The notes: a model not told the origin generated them from the letters alone. A stretch of DNA of 64,000 nt from Bacteriovoracia bacterium (GCA_050251055.1 JBFWNL010000007.1:32001-96000); one strand, 5' to 3'. Positions 49,108 through 61,197 are shown, numbered from the stretch's first letter. Program-made: numbers and translations.

Positions 49108-50223
49108 ATGAGCTCATCGCAAAAAACGCTTCGCGGCGCGGTTATCGGCTACGGTTTCATCTCAGGCAAAGGCCATATCCCGGCCTACCTCGAGCGTGCT
49201 CAAAAGCAGCAGGATGTCCAGATCACGGCGGTGGCCGACATCTGCGAGGGCCGGCGCAAGATCGCGGCCGAAACCCTGCCTGGCGTGCGCGTTTACAGTG
49301 ACTACGAATCGCTGCTCGCCGGCGAAACCGGCAAGCTTGATTTCGTCGATATCTCCACGCCTCCTTGTGACCACGCGAAGATCGCGCACGCGGCGTTTGA
49401 TCGCGGCTTACACGTGCTTTGCGAAAAGCCCCTGACCACTTCCTTGGAAGACGCCCGTGCGCTTTTGAAACATGCTCAGGACGCCCAGCGCGTGCTTTTC
49501 CCTTGTCACAACTACAAGCATGCGCCCGTGGTGAAAGCTATTCGCGAGATCATCGACAGCGGCAAGATCGGCCGCGTGAAGTCGGTGGCGCTCAGCACCT
49601 ACCGCAACACGCACGCCAAGGGCGTGACCGAATGGAACACGCACTGGCGCCGCGAAAACCGCTACAGTGGCGGCGGCATCGCGATGGACCACGGTAGCCA
49701 TAGCTTTTATTTGATGTTCGATTGGCTGGGATCGTATCCCACCGCGGTCACGGCGAAGATGTCGACCCAAGGCACGAAGCCCGATGGTTCGCCCATGGAC
49801 ACGGAAGATAATTTCACCGCGACGCTCACGTTCCCTACGGGCTCGGCCCACGCCTACCTGACTTGGACGGCGGGCGTGCGCAAGGTCATTTACAGCATTC
49901 AAGGCGAGCGCGGCGCGGTCACCGTCGATGACGACGATCTCCAGCTGGCGACTATCGAAAAAACCTCCGGCCCCGACGTCGCCCAAGGCGCCGTGAAATG
50001 GAACGTCGAGAAGCGCTCGATCGCTTCGCATTGGATGGATGCGAGCCACGTAAGCTGGTTTAACTCGCTTTTTGATCAATTCAAGGGCGCCATCGCGCGC
50101 GGCGAATTCGTGGGAAAAGAAGCCCGCGAGTCGTATCTCTGCATCGAGCTCATCATGGCCGCTTACGCTTCGGCCGCCGATCGGTGCCAGGAACAGCCTC
50201 TTTTGGGCTTGCCCACCGCGTAA
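49108..50223 (+). CDS. Gfo/Idh/MocA NAD(P)-dependent oxidoreductase (inositol dehydrogenase-like)
   Basis: IGYGFIS, STPPCDH, CEKPL and GGGIAMDHGSH motifs. Confidence 0.88.
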   Translation: MSSSQKTLRGAVIGYGFISGKGHIPAYLERAQKQQDVQITAVADICEGRRKIAAETLPGVRVYSDYESLLAGETGKLDFVDISTPPCDHAKIAHAAFDRGLHVLCEKPLTTSLEDARALLKHAQDAQRVLFPCHNYKHAPVVKAIREIIDSGKIGRVKSVALSTYRNTHAKGVTEWNTHWRRENRYSGGGIAMDHGSHSFYLMFDWLGSYPTAVTAKMSTQGTKPDGSPMDTEDNFTATLTFPTGSAHAYLTWTAGVRKVIYSIQGERGAVTVDDDDLQLATIEKTSGPDVAQGAVKWNVEKRSIASHWMDASHVSWFNSLFDQFKGAIARGEFVGKEARESYLCIELIMAAYASAADRCQEQPLLGLPTA

Positions 50224-50355
50224 TTTTGGGTGGATTGCCCAAAACGGGGTTTTGCCGCCTTTTCTGATCAAAATGCTGGGTGATTATGGCCTTGCGCTCT
50301 GGGGCTCCGTGGACTAATTCACTTAGGTTTCAAATCCATAAGGAGCATTCATAGC

Positions 50356-51723
50356 ATGGCTCAGCCAACGACCCAGTCGAGTACAAAGAAAAGCACGGCC
50401 CGCAACATTACACCCGCCAAAGGGAAGCTCGCGGTTCTCACTCCCGGCATGGGGGCGGTGGCCACTACTTTTTACGCCGGCGTCGAAGCCGTCAAGAAAG
50501 GCATCTCGCAGCCAATCGGTTCGTACACTCAGCTCGGCAAGATTCGTTTGGGCAAGCGTACGGAGAATCGTCATAAGCTGGTGAAGGATCTCGTACCGCT
50601 CGCTTCGCTCGATCAGCTGGTGTTCGGTGGCTGGGACATTTTCCCCGAGAACGCTTACGAAGCCGCGAAGAACGCGCAAGTGCTCGAAAAAGAATTGCTG
50701 GAAGCCGTGAAGGAACCGCTCTCGAAGATCAAGCCAATGGCGGCTGTTTTCGATCACGAGTTCGTGAAGCGCATCGACGGCCCGAACGTCAAGAAGGGCG
50801 CCAACAAGATGGAGCTCGCCGAACAGCTCCGCGCCGACATCCGTAATTTCATGAAAGACAACGGCTGCGATCGCGCCGTGATGGTTTGGTGCGCGTCCAC
50901 CGAAGTGTATACGCCGCCTACGGCCGTGCACCAGTCGGTGAAGGCTTTCGAAGAAGGCCTGCGTAACAACGATCCTTCGATCTCGCCCGCGCAGATCTAC
51001 ACGTACGCCGCGCTGAAAGAGCGGGTGCCCTACGCCAACGGATCGCCGAACGTGTCGGTCGAAATGCCCTGCCTGCAGGAGCTGGCCAACGAAATGGCTA
51101 CCCCGATCTCGGGTTCGGATTTCAAGACGGGTCAAACGTTGTTGAAGACCGTCATCGCTCCCGGCCTGCGCAACCGCCAGTTGGGCGTCGCTGGCTGGTA
51201 CAGCACCAACATCCTCGGTAACCGCGATGGCGAAGTGCTCGATGATCCGGGCTCGTTCAAGTCGAAGGAAGTCACCAAGAGCGGCGTGCTCACGGACATC
51301 TTCTCGGCGGAAATGTACCCCGAGCTCTACAAAGACATCCACCACGTGGTCCGCATCAATTACTACCCACCACGCGGCGATAATAAAGAAGGCTGGGACA
51401 ACATCGACATCTTCGGTTGGCTGGGCTACCCGATGCAGATCAAGGTGAACTTCCTCTGCCGCGACTCCATTTTGGCCGCCCCGATCGTGCTCGATCTGGC
51501 GCTGTTCATGGATCTCGCGTCGCGCGCCGAAATGCGCGGCATTCAAGAGTGGCTTTCGTTCTACTTCAAATCGCCGGTCGTGAAACCGGGCCTGCGCGCC
51601 GAGCATGATCTGTCGACGCAGCTCCTGAAGCTCGAGAACACGTTGCGCTTCTTCACCAACGAAGAGCTCATCAATCACTTGGGCCTCACGCATTACGGCA
51701 TCGACGAAGGCGAAAACGCCTAA
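50356..51723 (+). CDS. ino1: Myo-inositol-1(3)-phosphate synthase
   Basis: GGWDI, WCASTE, NGSPN, DFKTGQT, STNILGNRDG, GDNKE, RDSILAAP and SFYFKSP motifs. Confidence 0.93.
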   Translation: MAQPTTQSSTKKSTARNITPAKGKLAVLTPGMGAVATTFYAGVEAVKKGISQPIGSYTQLGKIRLGKRTENRHKLVKDLVPLASLDQLVFGGWDIFPENAYEAAKNAQVLEKELLEAVKEPLSKIKPMAAVFDHEFVKRIDGPNVKKGANKMELAEQLRADIRNFMKDNGCDRAVMVWCASTEVYTPPTAVHQSVKAFEEGLRNNDPSISPAQIYTYAALKERVPYANGSPNVSVEMPCLQELANEMATPISGSDFKTGQTLLKTVIAPGLRNRQLGVAGWYSTNILGNRDGEVLDDPGSFKSKEVTKSGVLTDIFSAEMYPELYKDIHHVVRINYYPPRGDNKEGWDNIDIFGWLGYPMQIKVNFLCRDSILAAPIVLDLALFMDLASRAEMRGIQEWLSFYFKSPVVKPGLRAEHDLSTQLLKLENTLRFFTNEELINHLGLTHYGIDEGENA

Positions 51724-51745
51724 TAACGAAGGCGAAAACGCTTAA
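51704..51745 (+). repeat. Tandem duplication of the last 20 nt of ino1
   Basis: ACGAAGGCGAAAACGCCTAA (51704-51723) and ACGAAGGCGAAAACGCTTAA (51726-51745). Confidence 0.85.
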
Positions 51746-51749
51746 GGTG

Positions 51750-52685
51750 CTAGCGACCCGAGTTCTTTAGGTATCGAATCACGTGTTCGACATCCATTCC
51801 TTTCGGCGGAGGGTTGCGTTCGAATAGGTTTCTAACGACCTCCTCTAGACGTCGTCCGTCCAGGAGACGGATAAAGTGGTATATGTAGGGGTCTTTCTTC
51901 GCTGCTAGTTCTTGGAGAGCTTCCACAATTTTGGGTTCTTGCGCTTTCGAGAAGTGAGATGCGTGCCCGGCTGCGACGTCATACACGGCTCGGAAAATAT
52001 CCGTAGGGGATGCTGTGTCGACGTTCATCAACCACGCTTCTCCGGCAAGAAACTTTTCGAGTGCTCCAGGGACAGCCTCTTCGATGACTACGGTTCCTTT
52101 GGGCTGGGTCTTGAATCGGAGTAAGCTCCGCGGGGTCATGGGTGCCTGGTTAGCAGACGCTTTGAATTCTCGGGCGCCGATGACGCCAAGAATTAGACTG
52201 GGAGCTTGGTCGATCACGAATGGGCTATCAAGTTCTGTCGCGATCGCGGTCGCCCGTTGTAAGATTGCAGACTCGGGGGTTCCGTCCCCCCTAAATGAAA
52301 AGGCGTGCACGACGTCGACGTCACCGCCAGCTCGGAAAGTGCCCGAACTGGACGAACCCACGATTTGTATACCGATGCCCTCTGACTCCAATCTGTCTAA
52401 GTAGGCCACGAAGGAGGGGTCGTAGACTTCGTGTGCATCTTGCCGTGATAAAATAACCGCCGAGCGCCCATTTTTCCCATAGGGAGCCAGCCGCTGCCTG
52501 GAGCGGGTAATCAGTTTCTCGGTTGAAGCGTTTAGGGGAAACAGGGAGTCGGCGGCACCATGGTCCAGGACTCTGCGGATTTTTTCTTCTGGGCAGCTTC
52601 CTAGGGCAGCGCTGTTTTGTAGGCAGAAATAGGCAAGCAGGAAAAGGCTAGGTAGGTTTCTTACGTTGATTGTAAATCGAGCCAT
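51750..52685 (-). CDS. Secreted protein with Pol-beta-type nucleotidyltransferase motif
   Basis: Signal peptide; IVGSSSSGTFRAGGDVDVV (hGS-x10-DxD) and a later FVID. Confidence 0.5.
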   Translation of the reverse strand: MARFTINVRNLPSLFLLAYFCLQNSAALGSCPEEKIRRVLDHGAADSLFPLNASTEKLITRSRQRLAPYGKNGRSAVILSRQDAHEVYDPSFVAYLDRLESEGIGIQIVGSSSSGTFRAGGDVDVVHAFSFRGDGTPESAILQRATAIATELDSPFVIDQAPSLILGVIGAREFKASANQAPMTPRSLLRFKTQPKGTVVIEEAVPGALEKFLAGEAWLMNVDTASPTDIFRAVYDVAAGHASHFSKAQEPKIVEALQELAAKKDPYIYHFIRLLDGRRLEEVVRNLFERNPPPKGMDVEHVIRYLKNSGR

Positions 52686-52694
52686 TCTAGTAAC

Positions 52695-52721
52695 TTATCG
52701 GTGGGAAGCCCCGCATACCTA
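52695..52721 (-). promoter_or_regulatory. Sigma28-like promoter
   Basis: TAGG-N15-ACCGATAA, 9 nt upstream of the ATG. Confidence 0.5.
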
Positions 52722-52846
52722 AAGAATGACGGTAAAGTGACGGTAGCATCTGCGGTAGGCAGGTTGTGCCAGGTAAGGCTATGAGATCTTAGAGGTTTTT
52801 CGCTGTTTTTTAAATGGCAGACGGGGTTTGTCGTGCTATGTTCTGA

Positions 52847-53779
52847 ATGATGCACATCGACGGAACCTTCTTTGAGTTAACCGGGGACTTGATCAACACG
52901 ATCATTTTGTTCGGTCTGCTCTTCGCCCTCATCATCGCTTACGTGATTCGTTTGGTCGTGGTGGGGCGCGCGCGCTTTGATCGCGTGGATCGGGAGGGCA
53001 CGGGTTTGCTTTTGAAGAAGGGCCCCATGGAGATGGTCTACTGGAGTTTGCAGCCTTTCGCCCGTTTGGCGGTGTTCTTTCGGGTGACGCCAAACATGCT
53101 TTCTTGGGCTTGTTTGGTTTTGGGGCTGGCGGCGGGGACTTGCTTGGCCTTCGGTCACTTTGGTTTCGGAGCGGCCTTCGCTACCGTGTCGGCGCTGCTC
53201 GACGCACTGGATGGCATGGTCGCGCGTATGACCGGACGGGCTTCCGACGCGGGCGAAGTGCTCGATGCCACCGTTGATCGCTACAGCGAATTTTTCTTTC
53301 TGGGTGGGCTTTGCGTTTATTATCGCGATATGTCCGAGCTGGTCGTGCTGACGCTGCTCGCGCTCATGGGCTCGTTCATGGTGAGCTACTCCACCGCCAA
53401 AGCGGAAGCGCTGCAGGTGAAGCCACCGCGCGGAAACATGCGGCGTACGGAGCGCGCGATTTTCATGACCGTGGGCGCCGCGCTCGCACCCATCAGCATT
53501 CCTTGGTTTGAGACGCCGGCGTACCTCAACGTGCCGGTCCCCGTGGGTTATCCCATGGTGCTTGCGGTGGGGATCATCGCCGTGCTGGCGAACTTCTCGG
53601 CGATCGAGCGCCTAGTGGCGATCGCGAAAGCCGTGCGCGCACGGGAAAACCAGGCACGTGAGCAGCTCAAGCAAGCGGAAGCGCTCACGGAAGCCCGGCA
53701 GGAGCTTGAGCAGATTGCCGGCTCTGACGACGCCGAAGCCGCGCCCGCGAACGCCACCAGCCGGTCGCCCAAGGTCTAG
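52847..53779 (+). CDS. CDP-alcohol phosphatidyltransferase (PI/PIP synthase-like)
   Basis: TPNML, DALDGMVARMTGRASDAGEVLDATVDR, MVSYSTAKAE and MRRTER motifs. Confidence 0.9.
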   Translation: MMHIDGTFFELTGDLINTIILFGLLFALIIAYVIRLVVVGRARFDRVDREGTGLLLKKGPMEMVYWSLQPFARLAVFFRVTPNMLSWACLVLGLAAGTCLAFGHFGFGAAFATVSALLDALDGMVARMTGRASDAGEVLDATVDRYSEFFFLGGLCVYYRDMSELVVLTLLALMGSFMVSYSTAKAEALQVKPPRGNMRRTERAIFMTVGAALAPISIPWFETPAYLNVPVPVGYPMVLAVGIIAVLANFSAIERLVAIAKAVRARENQAREQLKQAEALTEARQELEQIAGSDDAEAAPANATSRSPKV

Positions 53780-53846
53780 GTCCACCAAAACCCCTATTTT
53801 ATCGGGCTATTTTTCCCGCCATGAAGTATATCCGGGCGGTTAGCCT

Positions 53847-55214
53847 ATGGAAATCCAGCAGCCGAAAAATCAAAAGCCCGTCTTGAAAACCCCCGTGCCT
53901 GGACCGAAGAGCCAAGCGATTCGTGCCCGTGAGGAGCAAGCGCTTGCCCCCGGCTTACAAGGCTTTGCGCTCATGGCGGGCATCGTGGTCGACGAGGCTC
54001 GCGGCAGCGCCGTGACGGATGTCGACGGCAACACTTTTCTCGACATCATTGGCGGTATCGGCGTGAACGGACTGGGCCACTCACACCCTAAGTTCGTCGA
54101 AGCGATCCAGAAGCAGGTGGCGAAGGCTTCGGTGGGGAGCTTCACTTCGGAAGCGCGCGTGCGCTTGTTCGAGCAGCTTTCGAAAAATCGCCCGACCCCC
54201 TCGGTGTATCGCACGCAACTTTATTCCGGAGGCGCGGAAGCGGTGGAGAGCGCGCTGAGGCTCGCGAAGTGCCATACCGGCAAGTACGAGTTCATCAGTT
54301 TTTGGGGCGGGTTCCACGGCAAAACCATGGGTGTGCTATCGCTCATGGGCTCGGACTTTAAAAATGGCCTCGGCCCGATGGTGCCGGGTTCGCACATTGT
54401 CCCATACGCGAACTGTTATCGCTGTCCCTTTCAGTTAAAGAATCCAAGCTGCGGCATGGCCTGCGTGGAGCATCTGCGCAAACACGTTAAGCTGGGGACC
54501 GCGGGCGCGGTCGCGGGCATCATCGCCGAGCCTATGCAGGGCACGGCCGGAAATGTGATTCCGCCGAATGACTTCTTGCCCGCCGTGGCGGAAGTGGCGA
54601 AGGAGATCGGCGCGCTCATGATCATCGACGAAATGATCACGGGCTTTGGTCGCACGGGTAAGTACTGGGGCGCCCACCATTCGGGTGTGCAGGCCGATAT
54701 CGTCACGCTCGGTAAGCAATTCGGAGGTGGTTTTCCGATGTCGGCCGTGATGACTACGGATGACATCTCAAAGGCGCAGCCCTGGAGCGTTCCCTCGGGG
54801 TCTTCTTCCAGCTACGGCGGAAACCCGTTGGGCGCGGCGGCCGGCGCGGCGGCGCTCACAATCATCGAGGAAGAGGGATTGGTCGAGAACTCCCGTAAAA
54901 TGGGGGATTATTTCCTGGGCAAGCTCAAGCCCTTCGAGGAAAAATACTCCTTTATCGGCGAGGCGCGGGGAGCGGGACTTTTCCTGGCGCTCGAGATGGT
55001 TCGCGACAAGGTGACGAAGGAGCCGCTCAGCAAAAAGGCGTGTCAGCGTGTTTTCACCGAGTGCCTCAAGCGTGGATTGCTCACCATGGCTTACGCGCCA
55101 AGTTTCCGCATTCAACCCGCGATGTCCATCGATACCGGCACCATCGATGCCGCCGTGGGCGTGCTGGAAGAAGTTTTCGACTTAATGGAAAAAGAAAAAC
55201 TTTGGCAGGCGTAG
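53847..55214 (+). CDS. Class III PLP aminotransferase
   Basis: FHGKT, EPMQGTAG, DEMITGFGRTG, TLGKQFGGG and YGGNP motifs. Confidence 0.9.
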   Translation: MEIQQPKNQKPVLKTPVPGPKSQAIRAREEQALAPGLQGFALMAGIVVDEARGSAVTDVDGNTFLDIIGGIGVNGLGHSHPKFVEAIQKQVAKASVGSFTSEARVRLFEQLSKNRPTPSVYRTQLYSGGAEAVESALRLAKCHTGKYEFISFWGGFHGKTMGVLSLMGSDFKNGLGPMVPGSHIVPYANCYRCPFQLKNPSCGMACVEHLRKHVKLGTAGAVAGIIAEPMQGTAGNVIPPNDFLPAVAEVAKEIGALMIIDEMITGFGRTGKYWGAHHSGVQADIVTLGKQFGGGFPMSAVMTTDDISKAQPWSVPSGSSSSYGGNPLGAAAGAAALTIIEEEGLVENSRKMGDYFLGKLKPFEEKYSFIGEARGAGLFLALEMVRDKVTKEPLSKKACQRVFTECLKRGLLTMAYAPSFRIQPAMSIDTGTIDAAVGVLEEVFDLMEKEKLWQA

Positions 55215-55256
55215 GCGCCTGCCTTTGGGGGTCCTGATCGGGTCCCCAAGGGAGCG

Positions 55257-58200
55257 CTAGTGCGCGTTCACTTCGCGCTCGTGCCCGGCCTCGAGGTAAG
55301 CTTCGGAACCGTGGCGATGGGTGCGCTCCCGGTATTCGCCGACGGTTTCCACGACCAAGTAGATCAGAATCGCGTAGGCCGAACCCCACATCAGATCCAG
55401 GATGTAGTGGTGGTTGAGGTACACGGCCGAAAAGCACATCAGCAAGTAGAAGAAGACGCAGAAACGCCGCAGGGATCCAAATTTGTATGCGTAAAGCACC
55501 GAGATCAGCGGATAAGCCACATGCAAAGATGGGATGGCGCCGAAGACGTCGGCTGCACGCCCGTACATCTCGCTAAAAAAGTGGGTGCCGAGGATCTGAT
55601 CGAAGCGCGCGGCGCCCGCCGAACTCGCGGGCACGTCGAGACGGGCGGGGCCTAATCCGTACTGAGCCACGTACCAGGGCGGCGCGGCCGCGTACCAGTA
55701 GTAGGTCGAGTAGCCCAGGCAGTTGGTCCAAAAGAACGTCCACATCATGCGGGGAGCCTTGCGCACGATCTCCCGCGCGGAATATTTATGCGTCCCGTGG
55801 AAGCCCAGCCAGAACATGAAGTAGGCGGCGCTGAAGACGAAGAGCGCGACGAAAACCAGGTAGGCGAAGCCGGTAACGAGGTCGAGCGCCGGATGCGTAT
55901 GTAGCTGCCACCACTCGTTAGGGGTAAGCACGCCCTTCGCGGTTTGGATGCCAAAGAAACGCTTATCGAAGAGATACGGCTCCTTCACGTGGATCGGCCC
56001 CCGCAGCCAGTCGGCATAAAAACGCTGGCTGTCGTAGACGATGCCCACGAGGAATACGGGTAGCAGGAACTTCAAGAACTCCCGGGTCGGTTTGCCGAGG
56101 TAAGCTAGCGCCAGCATCAATCCCGAAATGAGCAGGTGATCGGAGCGCAGGCCTCCGAGCGCAAGGAGGGAAAGCACGTACCCCGCGATCAGCCCCAGCG
56201 GCATCCAGCGCTCGCGCGGCGAAAGCGATCGCCACCACGCGGGCCAGCGGAAGATCCAGTCCCAGCCGCGGTAACGTAGCAAACGGCCCCAAACCTGGAG
56301 CGGCTCCATGATCCGGAAGCGAACTTTTGGGCGGGCATTTTCGATCTGCAGCTTTTCGGAGTCGCGATAGTAAAGGTAAGCCGGTAAGGCGATCATCGCC
56401 GCGAGCAGGGTGGTGATTTCACCCAAGACCGCGAGCTTACCGAAGCTAACGAAAGCCTGGTTGCCGGCGATGAGGAGCGATCCGTAACCGACGACCGTCG
56501 TGAGGCTCGCCATGCCGACGGCGCTGCCGGTGCTGCGGATTACCCCCAAGATGCTGCCCCGGCCATCGAGGCGGTAACGCTGGAAGATATTTACGCCGTA
56601 GTCGACGCCGATACCGAAGGTGATGGGGAGCGCGATGAAGTTCAGGAAATTGATCTTGAAATCGAAACCCAGGATCACGCCCGCCATCCAGGTTACCCCC
56701 AGGATCAGTGAGAAGAGGCAGAGCGAGATCAAGCGCGCGCTCCGGAAAAGCGCGATCACGAGCAGGATCACGGCGCCGAAGGCGAAGAGCGTGGCCCGAG
56801 GTCCGTCACGCTTAATGGCGTCGATCATGTCGGCGGTCACGGGGAATTGACCGGCTACCGGGATGCCGGGCGTGACCTTGTCCGCCACCGCGCGCAGGTC
56901 GCGGACGAACTGCAGGAGCTTGTTGCTGTCCTTCGTGGGGTTGGTCACCGGCGGTTCCACCAACACGAGATTGCCCACGGCCCCGCTTTTTTCCGTGAAC
57001 TTGCGCAATACCATCGGCGGCAGATCCTGGACGGACACCGGTACGTAGCTTTCCTCGTTCAGAAACTCGGACGCGAGTTTCTTTTCCTCGGGCGAGAGCG
57101 CGGACAGAATGCGCGGCGTGAGCTGCGACTTGATTTGGCGCAGGACCCGGATCTTTTCCGGCTGGCCCAAGGGCACGAAATCGTCGATTGAGTAAACGGA
57201 AGCGATCAGGCTCTGGCTGCCCTGAGACCTCTGCAGTTTCTTGGCTTCTTCCGCCACGCGCACGGCCTCCGCCTTGGTGTGCGGCATGATTACGGTGGGC
57301 GAGAGCCAGCGCTGGAAGACCTCGTCGATGCGTTTGGAGAGAAACGCCGAGCCCTGCTCGATGCTGCGTTTATCACGCAGTTTTTCCAGGTTGGTTTCCA
57401 GGATGGCGTCGCTGTAGCTAAAGAAGGTGATGAGCGAGACGACGGTCAGCGCGAAAGTCAGGCCCCAGATCGGGCGGGAAAACTTACGAATGAGCCAGAT
57501 GATGGGCTCGGCGAAAAACTGGAATGGCTTGGGGTCGCCAGGAAGCTCGCGCTTTACTCGGATCGGCAGGATGCGGTGCCAGACCGTGAGAAGGGCCGGC
57601 AGCAGCGTGTAGGCCGAAATCCAGCAGATCACCATGCCGATGAGGCCGATCACGCCGAATTGCTTGAAGCCGCGGAAGCTGGTGAGCATGAGCGATCCGT
57701 AGGAAAGCCCTGCCGCCAGCGCGGCGACCAGGGTCGCGGTATAGGTCTGAGTCAGGGCGAGGTGCACGCCGCGAATGTTTCCATTGCCCTTGCGGCGCTC
57801 CTCCATGTAGCGCGCGAGGTAGATAATGCCGAAGTTGATGCCGTTGCCGATGACGATCGAGCCCAGGAACGCGGAGTTGGCGTTAAGGTAGCCCACCGCG
57901 AAGAACGAAACGCCGAAGGTCGCCAGGGTGCCGATGAATAGGCTCACCATGAGCGCGAAGACCCCGCCGATCGTTCGGTAGTAAACGAGCATGAAAACCG
58001 TGCACAGGATTACTACGATGATCGTAGAGAGCTCGAGATCCTCCATGAGCGAATGATGCTCTTCGATGAGGTTCTGGACGCTGCCGGAAAACTTCACGTC
58101 CAGCCCCGCCCCGTATTTGGCTTCGTTGCCCTTCGGGTCGAGACCGGCGATAGCTTGATCGACGGCGTGACGAAGGCGTTCGGCCCCATCGATGCCTGAG

Positions 58201-58805
58201 GCGGCCCCCGGTAGATCGACGAGTAGAATACGGATCGTCTCGTCTTGATTGGCGTAATAGCCGTTCGGGAAGTGGGAGTAAGACGATGTCTTCTGGTTGT
58301 ATTTCGCCCGCATGGCGTCGAAATCGAGCTTGGGCTCCGGAATCTCGGTGGTCCGGAAAATATTCAAGGGGTTGTAGAGTTCTTTTTCGTAGCTGATGCG
58401 GTCGCGGATGTAGGTTCGGATGGAGGTGAGATCATCGATCTCCATGTAAAGTGCCTTGCGCGAATCAAAGAACTTCAGCTCATCGGTGATCTTATACTCG
58501 GTACCGGCGACGATGGACTTTGGGACTTGCTTCAGGCGGTCGACCAGATCGTGCAGGAATCGGAGACTGCCCTTGGGGTTGGGCGAAAAAATCAGCACCG
58601 CGAGATTCTCGGTGGACTCGAGCCGTTCGGTCACTTCCTTGAGATCGATGACGCTGCGAGCGTCCGTGGGCAAAAGCTCTTCGATGTTTGTCCGGAGATT
58701 CTTGTAAAGCTGGATCGAGTAATAGCCACCCCAGATAGCGATGAGCAACCCGATGATGCAGATCAGCCCGGCTCGTTTGAGCACTAGGCGGGAGTAGAAA
58801 TTCAC
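55257..58805 (-). CDS. MMPL/RND transporter fused to Aur1-like inositol-phosphoceramide synthase (PAP2) domain
   Basis: Two MMPL halves (GNGINFGI, GIGVDYGVNI); C-terminal AAAPPWY, AGAARFD, FGAIPSLH and YLNHHYILD motifs. Confidence 0.82.
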   Translation of the reverse strand: MNFYSRLVLKRAGLICIIGLLIAIWGGYYSIQLYKNLRTNIEELLPTDARSVIDLKEVTERLESTENLAVLIFSPNPKGSLRFLHDLVDRLKQVPKSIVAGTEYKITDELKFFDSRKALYMEIDDLTSIRTYIRDRISYEKELYNPLNIFRTTEIPEPKLDFDAMRAKYNQKTSSYSHFPNGYYANQDETIRILLVDLPGAASGIDGAERLRHAVDQAIAGLDPKGNEAKYGAGLDVKFSGSVQNLIEEHHSLMEDLELSTIIVVILCTVFMLVYYRTIGGVFALMVSLFIGTLATFGVSFFAVGYLNANSAFLGSIVIGNGINFGIIYLARYMEERRKGNGNIRGVHLALTQTYTATLVAALAAGLSYGSLMLTSFRGFKQFGVIGLIGMVICWISAYTLLPALLTVWHRILPIRVKRELPGDPKPFQFFAEPIIWLIRKFSRPIWGLTFALTVVSLITFFSYSDAILETNLEKLRDKRSIEQGSAFLSKRIDEVFQRWLSPTVIMPHTKAEAVRVAEEAKKLQRSQGSQSLIASVYSIDDFVPLGQPEKIRVLRQIKSQLTPRILSALSPEEKKLASEFLNEESYVPVSVQDLPPMVLRKFTEKSGAVGNLVLVEPPVTNPTKDSNKLLQFVRDLRAVADKVTPGIPVAGQFPVTADMIDAIKRDGPRATLFAFGAVILLVIALFRSARLISLCLFSLILGVTWMAGVILGFDFKINFLNFIALPITFGIGVDYGVNIFQRYRLDGRGSILGVIRSTGSAVGMASLTTVVGYGSLLIAGNQAFVSFGKLAVLGEITTLLAAMIALPAYLYYRDSEKLQIENARPKVRFRIMEPLQVWGRLLRYRGWDWIFRWPAWWRSLSPRERWMPLGLIAGYVLSLLALGGLRSDHLLISGLMLALAYLGKPTREFLKFLLPVFLVGIVYDSQRFYADWLRGPIHVKEPYLFDKRFFGIQTAKGVLTPNEWWQLHTHPALDLVTGFAYLVFVALFVFSAAYFMFWLGFHGTHKYSAREIVRKAPRMMWTFFWTNCLGYSTYYWYAAAPPWYVAQYGLGPARLDVPASSAGAARFDQILGTHFFSEMYGRAADVFGAIPSLHVAYPLISVLYAYKFGSLRRFCVFFYLLMCFSAVYLNHHYILDLMWGSAYAILIYLVVETVGEYRERTHRHGSEAYLEAGHEREVNAH

Positions 58806-58823: not shown

Positions 58824-59678
58824 GTGACGGCGTCCGCAAAGCAGTTTCAGCAATTAGCGTTGTGTTTCCGCCTATTTTGGTCTTTACTATTGGTCGTGAA
58901 TCTCTGTCAGTTACTCGTGCGCTGGACCAAGCGATTGGGCGAATTTATGCTCTTCGTCAACGAGACGATCAAAGTCTTTCCGGGTCTGTGGAAGCGCCGC
59001 GACTTGTTCTTCCGTCAGTGTGAATTTATCGGAGTGACTTCGACAGGTATTATTCTCGTGGCGGCGCTCTTTATGGGTGCTGTTTTAGGTTATCAACTTT
59101 ACGTGTCATTTCATTACTTTGGTGCCGAGGCTTTACTCGGCGGAAGCGTCGGGGTGGCACTCTTCCGGGAGCTGGCTCCCGTCATGGGCGCGGTGATGGT
59201 GACCGGGCGGGCGGGCGCGGCGATGGCCGCTGAGATCGCCAGTATGCGAATCTCCGAACAGATCGACGCGCTCGAGGTCATGGCGATCGATCCGATGGAA
59301 TACCTCGTGGCTCCGCGGGTGGTGGCGGGCGTTTGCATGATGCCGCTTCTGTCCGTCCTTTTCGCGGGCATCGCTTCGCTTGCGGCCGCGGGCGTGGCCT
59401 GCGGAGTGATGGGATTGAGCACGCCGGTCTATTGGAGTCAGTTTTCCAAAGTGGTCGATCCGATCGAGCTCACCCATTGCGTGACCAAGGGAGCGATGTT
59501 CGGGTTGGTGCTGACCTGGGTGGGTTGTTTCTATGGGTTTCGTGCGCACGGGGGCGCCTACGCGGTAGGCAAGGCCACACGTACGACGGTGGTGGTGAGC
59601 TGTCTCACGATTCTGCTCTCGGATTACGTGCTGACGTCGCTACTTCCATTTGGATTTGCCAGACTGATTGCCGAATGA
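58824..59678 (+). CDS. mlaE: MlaE-family ABC permease
   Basis: RELAPVMGAVMVTGRAGAAMAAEIASMRISEQIDALEVMAIDP; true start possibly GTG 58896. Confidence 0.9.
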   Translation: MTASAKQFQQLALCFRLFWSLLLVVNLCQLLVRWTKRLGEFMLFVNETIKVFPGLWKRRDLFFRQCEFIGVTSTGIILVAALFMGAVLGYQLYVSFHYFGAEALLGGSVGVALFRELAPVMGAVMVTGRAGAAMAAEIASMRISEQIDALEVMAIDPMEYLVAPRVVAGVCMMPLLSVLFAGIASLAAAGVACGVMGLSTPVYWSQFSKVVDPIELTHCVTKGAMFGLVLTWVGCFYGFRAHGGAYAVGKATRTTVVVSCLTILLSDYVLTSLLPFGFARLIAE

Positions 59679-59706
59679 CCGATTGCAGAATAGAAAGAGT
59701 ACGACT

Positions 59707-61197
59707 ATGGCAGGCGAAAACATCCGAACCGTAAAAATCAAAGTGGGCCTCTTCTCCTTGGCCGGACTGGCGCTGATCGGCGTGATCACCGTCTTCGTGA
59801 ACGATCGCCCCTTCTGGTGGCGGGGGTGCGAGTTGGTGCACGTGAACATCGAGGATGCCACGGGCCTAAAGACGAAATCCCCCATCCGTTCGCTCGGGTT
59901 GCAGATCGGGTACCTTCATTCGGTCGAGCTCTTTCAGCAGCAGGTCCGTTTGGGGATTTGCATCACCGCGCCGGTGGAAGTGCTGCCGGACACGCGCGCC
60001 TATGTGAAGGGCGAAGGTTTCTTGGGCGACAAATTCGTGGAGCTAAAGCCCGTGAAGTACGTTGGGCAATCGCGCGATGAGACGTTGAACGACGCAGCTC
60101 CCTCGCAGACCTCGACTCCCGCGCCGGCGCAAACCTGGGCACCCAGCCGGCCGATCCACCCATTGCTTTGGGCGATGGGGTGGGGCGTGGACGCGGCTTG
60201 GGCGGCCAAAACCAACGTGAACGTGGCCGAGGCGAAGGATAGCCGCAAGGAGATCCCGGTCGGTGAAAAGAGCCAAGACGTGCAGGAGTTGGTGAACGAG
60301 GTCAACGGCCTCGTGGGCGAACTCTCCGTGCTCACGAACAATCTCAAAACGTCGCTCAACCCGGTCGACATGCAGCGCACGATGCAGAAGTTGAATCGTA
60401 CGCTTGAGAACGCGGCGAAAACGCTTTCGCCGGAAGGCAATCTCACCACTACGGCCCAACGCGCGCTCGCGAAACTCGAAGACGCCATCGAGCAGATGCG
60501 CGACATGGTGACGCGAATCAACCAGGGCGAAGGCTCGGTGGGCATGGTGATCAACGACCCCAGCTATGCCGAGGAGCTGCGCGATGCCCTCCGGAATTTG
60601 AATTCGCTGCTTTCGAAGGTGAGCGGCGTACGTTTCCAGGTGGATGTCGGAGCGGAAGCTTTGCCGGCTTACAGCGATGCGCGGGGCTGGTTCCGGTTGG
60701 GCATCTGGCCGTCGGCCGACCGCTACTATCTGCTCGGTTTGTCGGTCGATCCGCGCGGGAAAACCAATGTGCTGGACGTCACCACCACGGCGGGCACGGC
60801 TAGCACCACGACTCGTTCGGTAACCACTGAGCAAGGAGGCATCCTGCTCACCGCGATGTTGGGTAAGGTGTTTTGGCACCGGCTTGATTTTTCGGCCGGC
60901 ATCTATCACGGGGACGCCACGCTGGGCGTGGCTTTCAATCTGGGACCGCAGACCAATGAGGAGCTGCTCCGGGTGGAGGCGCAGGGGTTTAGCGGCGCGG
61001 ATGGAAGGGGCGGCCACCAGTTCGACGGCCGCGCGAACGCCATCTGGTTTCCGTCGCAGAGCCCTTACCTGAAGACGATTTACATCCGCGGCGGGGTGGA
61101 TTCGGTTCGCCAGGTAAACGGAAAGTTTTCGTATTCGGTGGGCGCCGGCATCTCGTTCAACGACCGGGACATCAAGATGCTCTTCGCGCTCCGCTAG
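59707..61197 (+). CDS. mlaD: MlaD/MCE protein with helical stalk and C-terminal beta-rich domain
   Basis: KVGLF TM; DATGLKTKSPIRSLGLQIG, GFLGDKFVEL and GEGSVGMVIND motifs. Confidence 0.85.
   Translation: MAGENIRTVKIKVGLFSLAGLALIGVITVFVNDRPFWWRGCELVHVNIEDATGLKTKSPIRSLGLQIGYLHSVELFQQQVRLGICITAPVEVLPDTRAYVKGEGFLGDKFVELKPVKYVGQSRDETLNDAAPSQTSTPAPAQTWAPSRPIHPLLWAMGWGVDAAWAAKTNVNVAEAKDSRKEIPVGEKSQDVQELVNEVNGLVGELSVLTNNLKTSLNPVDMQRTMQKLNRTLENAAKTLSPEGNLTTTAQRALAKLEDAIEQMRDMVTRINQGEGSVGMVINDPSYAEELRDALRNLNSLLSKVSGVRFQVDVGAEALPAYSDARGWFRLGIWPSADRYYLLGLSVDPRGKTNVLDVTTTAGTASTTTRSVTTEQGGILLTAMLGKVFWHRLDFSAGIYHGDATLGVAFNLGPQTNEELLRVEAQGFSGADGRGGHQFDGRANAIWFPSQSPYLKTIYIRGGVDSVRQVNGKFSYSVGAGISFNDRDIKMLFALR

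Follow-up and report, generated by a model that had tools for sequence, protein, structure and literature searches.

Inositol lipids were considered rare in bacteria, and it was not until 2022 that the genes behind them were established, in gut Bacteroidetes alone. Inosamine formation is known from streptomycin and rhizopine synthesis, in which scyllo-inosamine is made by an inositol dehydrogenase and an L-glutamine:scyllo-inosose aminotransferase; the inosose aminotransferases of the known inosamine pathways are of the DegT/StsC type. In hopanoid synthesis, the class III aminotransferase HpnO puts an amine on the lipid head group and the MMPL/RND protein HpnN exports the lipid.

The closest described gene set is BT_1522-BT_1526 of B. 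thetaiotaomicron. In the parts of the source used here, it consists of the myo-inositol-1-phosphate synthase (MIPS) BT_1526, the PIP synthase BT_1523 with the signature DxxDGxxAR...GxxxDxxxD, the GtrA-motif protein BT_1524, the PgpA-like BT_1525, which is the PIP phosphatase, and the PAP2-type synthase BT_1522, which is the phosphoinositol-dihydroceramide synthase (PMC9246714). The same parts of that source describe a putative alternative inositol-lipid cluster of the B. vulgatus-like kind, with an NTP transferase, a CDP-alcohol phosphatidyltransferase, a HAD hydrolase and an LPG-synthase-like neighbour (PMC9246714). Class III (GabT-like) aminotransferases are described for a three-gene azasugar cluster (GabT1) and for validamycin synthesis (ValM); their substrate is a keto sugar phosphate (at C2 of fructose-6-phosphate) or they belong to an aminocyclitol pathway (PMC8382821).

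Here we analysed a 64,000-nucleotide stretch of Bacteriovoracia DNA (the window). The original prediction had placed a Gfo/Idh/MocA dehydrogenase (GFO), MIPS, a CDP-alcohol phosphotransferase (PIPS), a class III aminotransferase (AT3) and an MMPL-Aur1 protein within 49108-58805, and the ORFs lie exactly there, with families assigned by Pfam and NCBIfam searches (Table 1). Judged from these families, the region would be a gene cluster for an inositol-containing membrane lipid with a conserved dehydrogenase/aminotransferase pair. The NCBIfam matches of the cluster proteins all score under the equivalog cut-offs. The relatives of MIPS are 65-87% identical to it. The genes had been described as co-oriented and converging on MMPL-Aur1; strands and convergence are right, but the run of four plus-strand genes is interrupted by a minus-strand ORF.

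Table 1. Features of the inositol-lipid region and its flank (positions in the window)
Feature	Position	Strand	Evidence or context
GFO: Gfo/Idh/MocA dehydrogenase, 371 aa	49108-50223	+	GFO_IDH_MocA N and C domains, E 5e-24, 7e-21
MIPS (ino1): myo-inositol-1-phosphate synthase, 455 aa	50356-51723	+	PF07994 E 2e-98; PF01658 E 6e-33
ORF of 311 aa, no known family	51750-52685	-	between MIPS and PIPS
PIPS: PIP-synthase-type class I CDP-alcohol phosphotransferase, 310 aa	52847-53779	+	CDP-OH_P_transf E 2e-12
AT3: class III PLP aminotransferase, distinct subfamily, 455 aa	53847-55214	+	Aminotran_3 E 2e-92
GC-rich hairpin, terminator-like	55204-55223		between convergent AT3 and MMPL::Aur1 stop codons
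MMPL::Aur1-like fusion, single ORF, 1182 aa	55257-58805	-	MMPL E 2e-33, then PAP2_3 E 6e-13
Aur1-like/BT_1522-like PAP2_3 domain, fusion residues 869-1182	55257-56201	-	PF14378 E 6e-13; NF052609 E 1e-55
MMPL/RND (HpnN-like) lipid exporter domain, fusion residues 1-868	56202-58805	-	PF03176 E 2e-33
MlaE permease	58824-59678	+	Pfam; divergent from MMPL gene
MlaD-domain protein	59668-61197	+	Pfam; divergent from MMPL gene

The combination of MIPS, a PI(P) synthase and an Aur1-like enzyme had been taken as the core of Bacteroides inositol-lipid synthesis, which agrees with the sections of PMC9246714 used here. Compared with the gene set as given there, all five parts have homologues in a Polyangiaceae operon (locus L099) and three in the present region. 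The present cluster differs from that set by adding the Gfo/Idh/MocA dehydrogenase, the class III aminotransferase and an MMPL exporter fused to the synthase. It also differs in lacking two parts: GtrA (PF04138) was not found in the genome (93.5% complete), and the phosphatase is outside the cluster. The original prediction was correct that the window holds no PIP phosphatase; PgpA is found on contig C3 of the genome. With moderate confidence, we regard the cluster as a variant of the Bacteroides type that carries a two-gene module for head-group modification. On balance, we favour the reading that this accessory module, GFO plus AT3, would oxidise and transaminate the inositol head group to give an amino-inositol phospholipid or phosphosphingolipid.

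The two genes are tightly coupled to each other and to inositol-lipid genes. Among 401 genomes of the phylum, orthologues of both AT3 and GFO were present in 74, AT3 only in 3, GFO only in 2 and neither in 322; kinship among these genomes makes the counts look more independent than they are. The co-occurrence also holds in genomes that carry AT3 and GFO on separate contigs. Five genomes kept MIPS-PIPS-GtrA while both GFO and AT3 were absent, and Aur1-like or MMPL neighbours were found in the four of them whose loci reach that far. Gains and losses of GFO and AT3 go together.

Synteny across Bdellovibrionota and Myxococcota, which the original prediction had suggested as a check, gave the same picture. 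We used 80 loci centred on AT3 orthologues, taken from Bdellovibrionota and Myxococcota, with a small number of records from Gemmatimonas or Acidobacteriota. Other genes of the set were carried by 75 of them and none by 5: PIPS was present in 64, GFO in 58, GtrA in 53, MMPL in 36, the Aur1-like gene in 36, PgpA in 18 and MIPS in 15, all of which are lower bounds because many loci are short. Within the order, MIPS and PIPS were found in 10/14 loci with an AT3 orthologue and the Aur1-like gene in 5/14. The Polyangiaceae locus is an eight-gene operon, MIPS-GFO-PIPS-GtrA-AT3-PAP2_3-PgpA-MMPL, with overlapping stops and starts; PgpA is inside the cluster there, in locus L111 and in the 18 loci counted above. 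Because of the recurrence in AT3 loci and the phyletic pattern in the 401 genomes, the gene grouping is far beyond chance. The original prediction was to be refuted if the pair did not go with ino1 in relatives; the loci and the genome counts do not refute it.

AT3 belongs to a distinct subfamily of class III aminotransferases. It has K290, D261 and R421, without exception in 90/90 orthologues, at the aligned positions of K268, D239 and R398 in E. coli GabT, which are the PLP lysine, the aspartate at the pyridine nitrogen and the carboxylate-binding arginine. The positions of GabT R141, E211 and Q242 are occupied by K159 (90/90 orthologues), T233 (85/90) and I264 (87/90). Among 15 paralogues of AT3 in the same genomes, R141 was kept in 11, E211 in 11 and Q242 in 15. 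The subfamily has 22 invariant positions of its own, and no TM segment was found in AT3.

These residues bear on a rival explanation, in which GFO and AT3 are housekeeping enzymes, a sugar dehydrogenase and a transaminase for GABA, ornithine or acetylornithine, that are adjacent by chance. The top NCBIfam names of AT3 are indeed acetylornithine or GABA aminotransferase families, all under their cut-offs, and the solved structures nearest to it are of the GABA and ornithine types (E 1e-68 to 1e-60). But AT3 lacks the equivalents of R141 and E211 that most of the paralogues keep, which argues that its substrate is neither GABA nor ornithine. Moreover, it occurs in only 77/401 genomes, each of those followed up has an inositol-lipid transferase, and the synteny is kept across two phyla. 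We consider the housekeeping explanation highly improbable; the residues also speak against activity on GABA or ornithine, which had been named as a possible refutation.

We propose instead that AT3 aminates a keto-inositol intermediate. The original prediction called a dehydrogenase plus a PLP aminotransferase the standard inosamine chemistry. Both enzymes are present, but AT3 is of class III and not of the DegT/StsC type: Pfam gives Aminotran_3 alone, with no assignment to DegT_DnrJ_EryC1. The logic is like that of the streptomycin and rhizopine pathways, in which a Gfo/Idh/MocA-type dehydrogenase yields a keto-inositol that is then aminated by a PLP enzyme, whereas the products there are soluble antibiotics or signals rather than lipid head groups. 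GabT1 and ValM resemble AT3 in being of class III and in standing alongside a dehydrogenase, and also a phosphatase; judged by their published description, their dehydrogenase is of another family and their products are not the one proposed here (PMC8382821).

The partner GFO has the family domains, with a Rossmann N domain, and carries E106-K107-P108 (EKP) and D194xxxH198 (DxxxH), which are invariant in 69 unique orthologues, and no TM segment was found in it. It reaches 60 bits against the IolG model TIGR04380 (cut-off 355). Its nearest solved relatives are varied sugar enzymes, including a scyllo-inositol dehydrogenase and several sugar 3-dehydrogenases. We propose that GFO is an NAD-dependent sugar or cyclitol dehydrogenase that would act on inositol (phosphate), turning one of its ring hydroxyls into a ketone.

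PIPS is predicted to link CDP-diacylglycerol to a phosphorylated cyclitol. Among NCBIfam models it matches those of archaetidylinositol-phosphate and PIP synthases best (E 2e-33 to 3e-27, under the equivalog cut-offs), and it reaches 101 bits against NF052561 of the BT1523 type (cut-off 350). The CDP-AP signature (D119, D122, G123, A126, R127, G136, D140, D144) is near-invariant in 77 sequences and is also common to M. tuberculosis PgsA1 and the Renibacterium PIP synthase. The phosphate-pocket residues R145, S180, R200, R203 and R255 are present as well and correspond to R94, S132, R152, R155 and R195 of PgsA1; R145 and R203 were placed by alignment to 6h5a, and R255 by motif position. [quoted passage not shown] All residues with such a role are kept in PIPS. 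R145, R203 and R255 are arginine in 91/91 unique AT3-linked sequences or near-invariant. PIPS differs from PgsA1 in its low similarity (only about E 1e-13), in an N-terminal extension of ~65 residues that adds a further hydrophobic segment, and at position 137, where Ala86 of PgsA1 is replaced by Glu.

Position 137 is acidic in 90/91 unique AT3-linked copies (89 E, 1 D, 1 A). Glu is also found in 4/14 copies from AT3-negative genomes and in 2/5 second copies in AT3-positive genomes. Glu137 was rejected as a clean separator of AT3-linked from AT3-less PIPS on account of those 4 unlinked copies, and is kept as a lead: residue 137 is a candidate specificity residue.

AT3 is also found with another type of inositol-lipid gene set. 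Of the 77 AT3-positive genomes, 64 have PIPS and 13 have no BT-like PIPS match. Ten of these 13 were examined, and all ten have a cluster of NTP-transferase, ATP-grasp, CDP-alcohol transferase, HpnL-like and HAD genes. The families match those of the B. vulgatus-like cluster, as far as it is given in the sections of PMC9246714 used here, and stand beside AT3/GFO in one genome (G006), in locus L109, in four genomes of family f22 and in five of family f13. That cluster is absent from the window; unlike the described version, those seen elsewhere always add ATP-grasp, AT3 and GFO, and often MMPL. The AT3/GFO pair accompanies two non-homologous inositol-lipid clusters.

The f13 genomes are relevant to a further explanation, that the product of MIPS, GFO and AT3 is a soluble aminocyclitol, which could serve as osmolyte, signal or precursor of another envelope glycan, and that these genes are beside lipid genes only through the common inositol phosphate. 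In this family, a MIPS-AT3 pair lies away from the transferases and beside LPS-core glycosyltransferase genes, with GFO elsewhere, as such a product would predict. But elsewhere in the same genomes there is a copy of the alternative lipid cluster. The usual place of AT3 in the loci is between GtrA on one side and the Aur1-like or MMPL gene on the other, with GFO directly upstream of PIPS, and in the Polyangiaceae operon the frames overlap. Together with the lipid transferases in the AT3-positive genomes, this makes a soluble product improbable.

The ATP-grasp gene, which has weak RimK-like and inositol-kinase-like matches, raises another question. Because it is always present in the alternative clusters, the chemistry may exceed oxidation and amination. 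The pair could act in the inositol-lipid pathway with an outcome other than a simple amino-inositol, such as ring epimerisation (myo to scyllo or other), further derivatisation of the amine or head-group turnover. A RimK-type enzyme could ligate a carboxylate to the amine, and the scyllo-inositol and sugar 3-dehydrogenases among the relatives of GFO would also fit. Against this, the BT-like clusters, including the present one, have neither a ligase nor a second reductase, and a ketone-to-amine couple is the simplest reading of a dehydrogenase and an aminotransferase that are gained and lost together. We consider a more complex outcome unlikely, although it deserves more weight than a soluble product.

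The original prediction saw no serine palmitoyltransferase in the window and suggested searching the genome for spt. That search found an Spt-like gene elsewhere (G000:C6:128572-129891). Its best match is NF047600 (502 bits, under the cut-off of 640), and orthologues are present in 38/41 genomes of the order. Kbl is encoded by a separate gene. Assignment of the Spt-like gene as BioF was rejected: no BioB passes the cut-off in the genome, and the bioF score is lower than the Spt score.

From these data, we propose the following pathway. MIPS would convert glucose-6-phosphate to L-myo-inositol-1-phosphate. GFO, with NAD+, would oxidise one ring hydroxyl to a ketone, which AT3, with PLP and an amino-acid donor, would convert to an amine. 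Our preferred timing for oxidation and amination is before the PIPS step. The PIPS-like transferase would then join the phosphorylated amino-cyclitol to CDP-diacylglycerol, and a PgpA-type phosphatase, whose gene is in the cluster in Polyangia and elsewhere in the present genome, would remove the extra phosphate. The Aur1-like domain would transfer the phospho-amino-inositol head group to ceramide, and the fused MMPL domain with its MlaE/MlaD neighbours would move the lipid towards the outer membrane. The pathway would end in a zwitterionic lipid, an amino-inositol phosphoglycerolipid and/or phosphoceramide. We infer this product from gene context alone; the keto/amino chemistry, its timing and its place on the ring are presumed, as is the final transfer to ceramide. 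An oxidised and aminated head group had already been suggested in the original prediction; the synteny, the Spt-like gene and the loss of GabT residues now support it, with the aminated product itself still inferred.

In a literature search covering titles and abstract openings (published carrier lipidomes were outside its scope), we found no description of an amino-inositol or inosamine natural lipid, and within that scope such a head group is not yet described in bacteria. The present data extend the inositol-lipid cluster to predatory and soil phyla. If the proposal is true, an anionic phosphoinositol head group would become zwitterionic, membrane charge would change and with it the way cells respond to cationic peptides, and in predators the change might bear on the distinction between self and prey membranes. 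The swap of OH for NH2 would make the lipid 0.984 Da lighter. A broader proposal, to which we give a little less than even credence, is that an undescribed class of zwitterionic lipids, phosphatidyl-amino-inositol and amino-inositol phosphoceramide, occurs in many Bdellovibrionota and Myxococcota and in a small number of further lineages. Inositol-1-phosphate would be oxidised by GFO and aminated by AT3 ahead of its attachment to lipid by a PIPS variant, whose acidic residue 137 would pair with the ammonium, the lipids would be exported to the outer membrane by MMPL/Mla, and the module would be combined with two non-homologous routes.

The last gene of the region encodes the proposed synthase and exporter in one protein. 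The C-terminal part of the fusion matches NF052609, the phosphoinositol dihydroceramide synthase model, with 189 bits (cut-off 480), and PF14378 scores above its cut-off. This Aur1-like domain is proposed to move the phospho-(amino)inositol head group from glycerolipid to ceramide. The best NCBIfam match of the MMPL domain is HpnN TIGR03480 (265 bits, cut-off 752), and NF052374 gives 152 bits (cut-off 1100). The pairing of a class III aminotransferase with an MMPL protein is like that of HpnO and HpnN; the proposed substrate here is instead an inositol lipid, and the MMPL domain falls far short of the HpnN cut-off. No hopanoid genes were seen in the locus, where the neighbours are inositol-lipid and Mla genes.

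In relatives, the two parts of the fusion are separate: the Aur1-like protein has its own gene in 40/40 relatives searched, and MMPL is a separate gene adjoining the cluster. Among 11 other matches in the protein collection, 8 further proteins were fused MMPL::PAP2_3. An assembly artefact was rejected in view of these other fused proteins, which make the fusion a recurring form. The adjacency of MMPL, MlaE and MlaD was also found in ten other loci, and the MlaE/MlaD pair is probably a lipid-trafficking partner. An MMPL/Mla export route would thereby be linked to the traffic of sphingolipid or inositol lipid to the outer membrane.

Promoter and terminator scans of the region gave sites no commoner than in shuffled sequence, except for the hairpin between the convergent genes. 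It has an 8-bp stem with 7 GC pairs and a T-rich tail on the minus strand (a consensus match only).

The original prediction had placed a candidate pathway for an amino-inositol (inosamine) phospho(sphingo)lipid at 49108..58805, and the ORF table, Pfam and NCBIfam located all of its genes there. The gene identities held, with two corrections: a 311-aa ORF on the opposite strand separates the genes of myo-inositol-1-phosphate synthase (MIPS) and the PIP-synthase-type CDP-alcohol phosphotransferase (PIPS), and the aminotransferase (AT3) is of class III, not of the DegT type. The top NCBIfam matches of PIPS were inositol-phosphate-using enzymes throughout (archaetidylinositol-phosphate synthase, E 2e-33; BT1523-type PIP synthase, E 8e-29; bacterial PIP synthase, E 3e-27), every one under the equivalog cut-off. 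MMPL::Aur1 consists of an MMPL/RND transporter (residues 1-868) and a PAP2_3 domain (residues 869-1182) that matched phosphoinositol-dihydroceramide synthase NF052609 with E 1e-55 (189 bits, cut-off 480).

Table. Features of the locus, in window positions
Feature	Position	Strand	Assignment
GFO (Gfo/Idh/MocA dehydrogenase)	49108-50223	+	all three Gfo/Idh/MocA domains (Pfam)
MIPS	50356-51723	+	PF07994, E 2e-98
ORF of 311 aa	51750-52685	-	no known family (Pfam/NCBIfam)
PIPS	52847-53779	+	CDP-alcohol phosphotransferase (Pfam/NCBIfam)
AT3	53847-55214	+	class III aminotransferase, E 2e-92
MMPL::Aur1	55257-58805	-	single ORF, 1182 aa
Protein of 382 aa	61369-62517	+	sub-threshold matches to Bdellovibrio MIDAS-family adhesin and gliding-motility lipoprotein CglD

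The GC3 of the 311-aa ORF was 0.57, versus 0.73-0.80 in the pathway genes. No counterpart was found in the related loci compared, where the MIPS-PIPS spacing is usually 10-150 bp, and the ORF may be a recent insertion or no gene at all. Its N-terminus resembles a lipoprotein signal. Downstream, Pfam identified genes for MlaE and an MlaD-domain protein, divergent from the MMPL gene. Since only 18 bp lie between the GTG start of MMPL::Aur1 (58805) and the MlaE start (58824) on opposite strands, both promoters would lie inside the neighbouring coding regions. This divergent layout is kept in relatives.

Clear AT3 orthologues (52-76% identity) occur in 15 of the 41 genomes of the order, the source genome included, and the remaining matches were paralogues (31-36% identical). 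MIPS and PIPS adjoin AT3 in 10/14 loci of the order, and an Aur1-like gene is present in 5/14. According to Pfam, a small gene of the GtrA family lies between PIPS and AT3 in these loci, and MMPL and PAP2_3 are encoded by two separate genes, in that order. In the cross-phylum scan, with one genome per species, AT3 orthologues (54-78% identity) yielded 80 loci; the record titles are Bdellovibrionota, Oligoflexia, Myxococcales or Polyangia, with a few Gemmatimonas and Acidobacteriota. Because many loci span just 2-6 kb, the counts beside AT3 are lower bounds: PIPS in at least 64, GFO in at least 58, GtrA in at least 53, MMPL and the Aur1-like gene in at least 36 each, PgpA in at least 18 and MIPS in at least 15. 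Only five loci had none of them, and the synteny expected across Bdellovibrionota and Myxococcota was thus borne out. A few genomes have, next to the orthologue and in divergent orientation, a further AT3-like gene of 43-45% identity (L071:2356, L102:8592, G376:C89:2356-3657).

A Polyangiaceae locus (L099) holds an operon in which Pfam identified eight same-strand genes, MIPS-GFO-PIPS-GtrA-AT3-PAP2_3-PgpA-MMPL, with overlapping stops and starts. In Bacteroides thetaiotaomicron, PMC9246714 describes BT_1526 as MIPS, BT_1523 as PIPS, BT_1524 as a GtrA-motif protein, BT_1522 as PI-dihydroceramide synthase and BT_1525 as a PgpA-like PIP phosphatase. L099 holds this full set plus GFO, AT3 and an MMPL exporter. 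The backbone of the cluster is the known Bacteroides type. GtrA was not found in the source genome (3.77 Mb, 93.5% complete; the window is on contig C7), which has one PgpA, on contig C3. In G021, an Alg9-like GT22 mannosyltransferase-family gene follows the cluster MMPL gene (L040:2659-4116), a hint that this lineage glycosylates the inositol lipid in the periplasm.

Each protein was searched for in 401 genomes sampled evenly from the phylum. AT3 orthologues were present in 77 genomes and GFO orthologues in 76; 74 had both, 3 only AT3, 2 only GFO and 322 neither, figures in which kinship among the genomes inflates any statistic on the pairing. The AT3-only genomes were G038 and G169 (in both, the cluster is truncated by a contig end) and G292 (86% complete), and the GFO-only genomes were G153 (a 41%-identity match) and G207 (77% complete, with GFO-PIPS located where a contig ends). 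The GFO-AT3 pairing extends over at least 9 families and three gene arrangements, and is kept across separate contigs, e.g. in families f2, f8 and f13. The behaviour of GFO and AT3 is that of a single accessory module; that they are unrelated housekeeping enzymes is very improbable. The inositol-lipid cluster also occurs without the pair: MIPS-PIPS-GtrA, Aur1-like-MMPL and MlaE-MlaD are present in G037 (94% complete) and G019 (97% complete), where GFO and AT3 were found nowhere in the genome, and G192, G367 and G323 are similar.

Thirteen AT3-positive genomes of the sample had no match to the Bacteroides thetaiotaomicron-type PIPS. All ten examined carry an alternative cluster of an NTP transferase, an ATP-grasp protein, a different CDP-alcohol transferase, an HpnL/LPG-synthase-like membrane protein and a HAD hydrolase. 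For Bacteroides vulgatus and Prevotella, PMC9246714 puts forward these genes as an alternative, Kennedy-like way of making inositol lipids. AT3, GFO and MMPL adjoin it in G006 (L039/L120); four f22 genomes have GFO-MIPS-ATPgrasp-CDP-OH transferase-HpnL-like-HAD-NTP transferase-AT3 at one locus, followed by MMPL in G172; and L109 is a further example. In five f13 genomes, MIPS and AT3 form a pair, and GFO and the transferase cluster lie elsewhere. One such pair (L192:11958-14278, G133) lies a few genes from GT9 heptosyltransferase-like and Kdo-transferase-like genes. Because the pair also accompanies the alternative cluster, GFO and AT3 follow inositol lipids as such, not one transferase. The ATP-grasp gene is constant in the AT3/GFO-linked clusters (L039:11466-12356 in G006, L109, L195-L198, L201-L205), with weak matches to RimK-type glutamate ligases and an inositol-trisphosphate kinase ATP-grasp domain. 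Its product could be a cyclitol kinase re-phosphorylating a free aminocyclitol, or an amine-carboxylate ligase derivatising the amine further.

AT3 was aligned with E. coli GabT together with 90 orthologues and with 15 paralogues that these genomes also encode. K290 (PLP lysine), D261 and R421 (carboxylate-binding arginine) are kept in 90/90 orthologues. The position of the GABA-carboxylate arginine is K159, a lysine in 90/90; that of the glutamate switch is T233, a threonine in 85/90; and that of Gln242 is isoleucine in 87/90. AT3 thus lacks the GabT substrate residues that most paralogues keep (arginine 11/15, glutamate 11/15, glutamine 15/15), which speaks against GABA or ornithine as substrate. 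Another 22 positions are invariant in orthologues and differ in paralogues, including an extra R104 and a serine-rich loop (317-322). The closest solved structures are archaeal/bacterial GABA/ornithine-type enzymes and omega-transaminases (E 1e-68 or weaker). GFO keeps EKP (106-108) and DxxxH (194-198) in 69 unique orthologues, and its solved relatives include scyllo-inositol dehydrogenase and sugar 3-dehydrogenases (E 1e-17 to 1e-19). GFO and AT3 both lack hydrophobic segments.

PIPS keeps the CDP-AP signature. By alignment and conservation, its R145, S180, R200, R203 and R255 correspond to mycobacterial R94, S132, R152, R155 and R195, which bind the phosphate of inositol phosphate (PMC4634129, PMC6506517), so the predicted acceptor is a phosphorylated cyclitol. 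A soluble aminocyclitol as the product of the pathway is improbable in our estimate. Residue 137 aligns with PgsA1 Ala86, one helical turn from Ala90, which was mutated to obstruct the inositol-phosphate pocket (PMC6506517). Among 91 unique AT3-linked copies it is Glu in 89, Asp in one and Ala in one (the second copy in L116), which is suggestive of an acceptor with a positive charge. Fourteen copies from 12 AT3-negative genomes have 4 Glu, 5 Lys, 4 Ala and 1 Val, and the residue is not a clean discriminator.

The simplest reading, and in our view a fairly probable one, is that of the original prediction, an amino-inositol lipid. GFO would oxidise a ring hydroxyl to a ketone and AT3 would aminate it, giving an amino-deoxy-inositol head group and a zwitterionic lipid. 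There is a smaller, though real, chance that the same module makes another head-group modification. For the amino-inositol lipid, action on soluble inositol-1-phosphate before PIPS would be preferred, short of proof, because GFO and AT3 are both soluble, the GFO gene lies between those of MIPS and PIPS, the pocket of PIPS retains the phosphate site and gains an acidic residue, and class III precedents exist: PMC8382821 describes one such enzyme that aminates a keto sugar phosphate and one that belongs to an aminocyclitol pathway. The literature searched, which did not extend to myxobacterial lipidome papers, held neither such a conserved dehydrogenase/aminotransferase module nor such lipids, and neither its pairing with two lipid routes, its spread in Bdellovibrionota/Myxococcota nor the MMPL/Mla linkage; the word "aminotransferase" is absent from PMC9246714. 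Confirmation of the predicted lipid would add a new class of head group.

The fusion of MMPL with the Aur1-like domain is unique to the source genome among the 41 of the order. Eight other fused MMPL+PAP2_3 proteins occur in the protein collection (Aur1-like part 33-65% identical), and this recurrence speaks for a genuine functional link between head-group transfer and export. PAP2_3 is also fused with a CDP-alcohol transferase (P0015, 663 aa), a fatty-acid desaturase domain (P0013, 654 aa) and FAD-dependent oxidoreductase domains (P0007, 843 aa). A second, shorter PAP2_3 protein of the source genome (G000:C6:58411-58845, L002; open frame 233 aa) had no NCBIfam match. As for the acceptor lipid, the search for a serine palmitoyltransferase gene found an alpha-oxoamine synthase on contig C6 that scores best as this enzyme, at 502 bits below the cut-off of 640. 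Kbl is a separate gene, BioB had no match above cut-off in the source genome, and orthologues of the Spt-like gene occur in 38/41 genomes of the order. Just upstream of it lies a carotenoid gene set (G000:C6:121700-126700; L135:2773-7670) of lycopene cyclase, polyprenyl synthase, phytoene desaturase-like and phytoene/squalene synthase genes.
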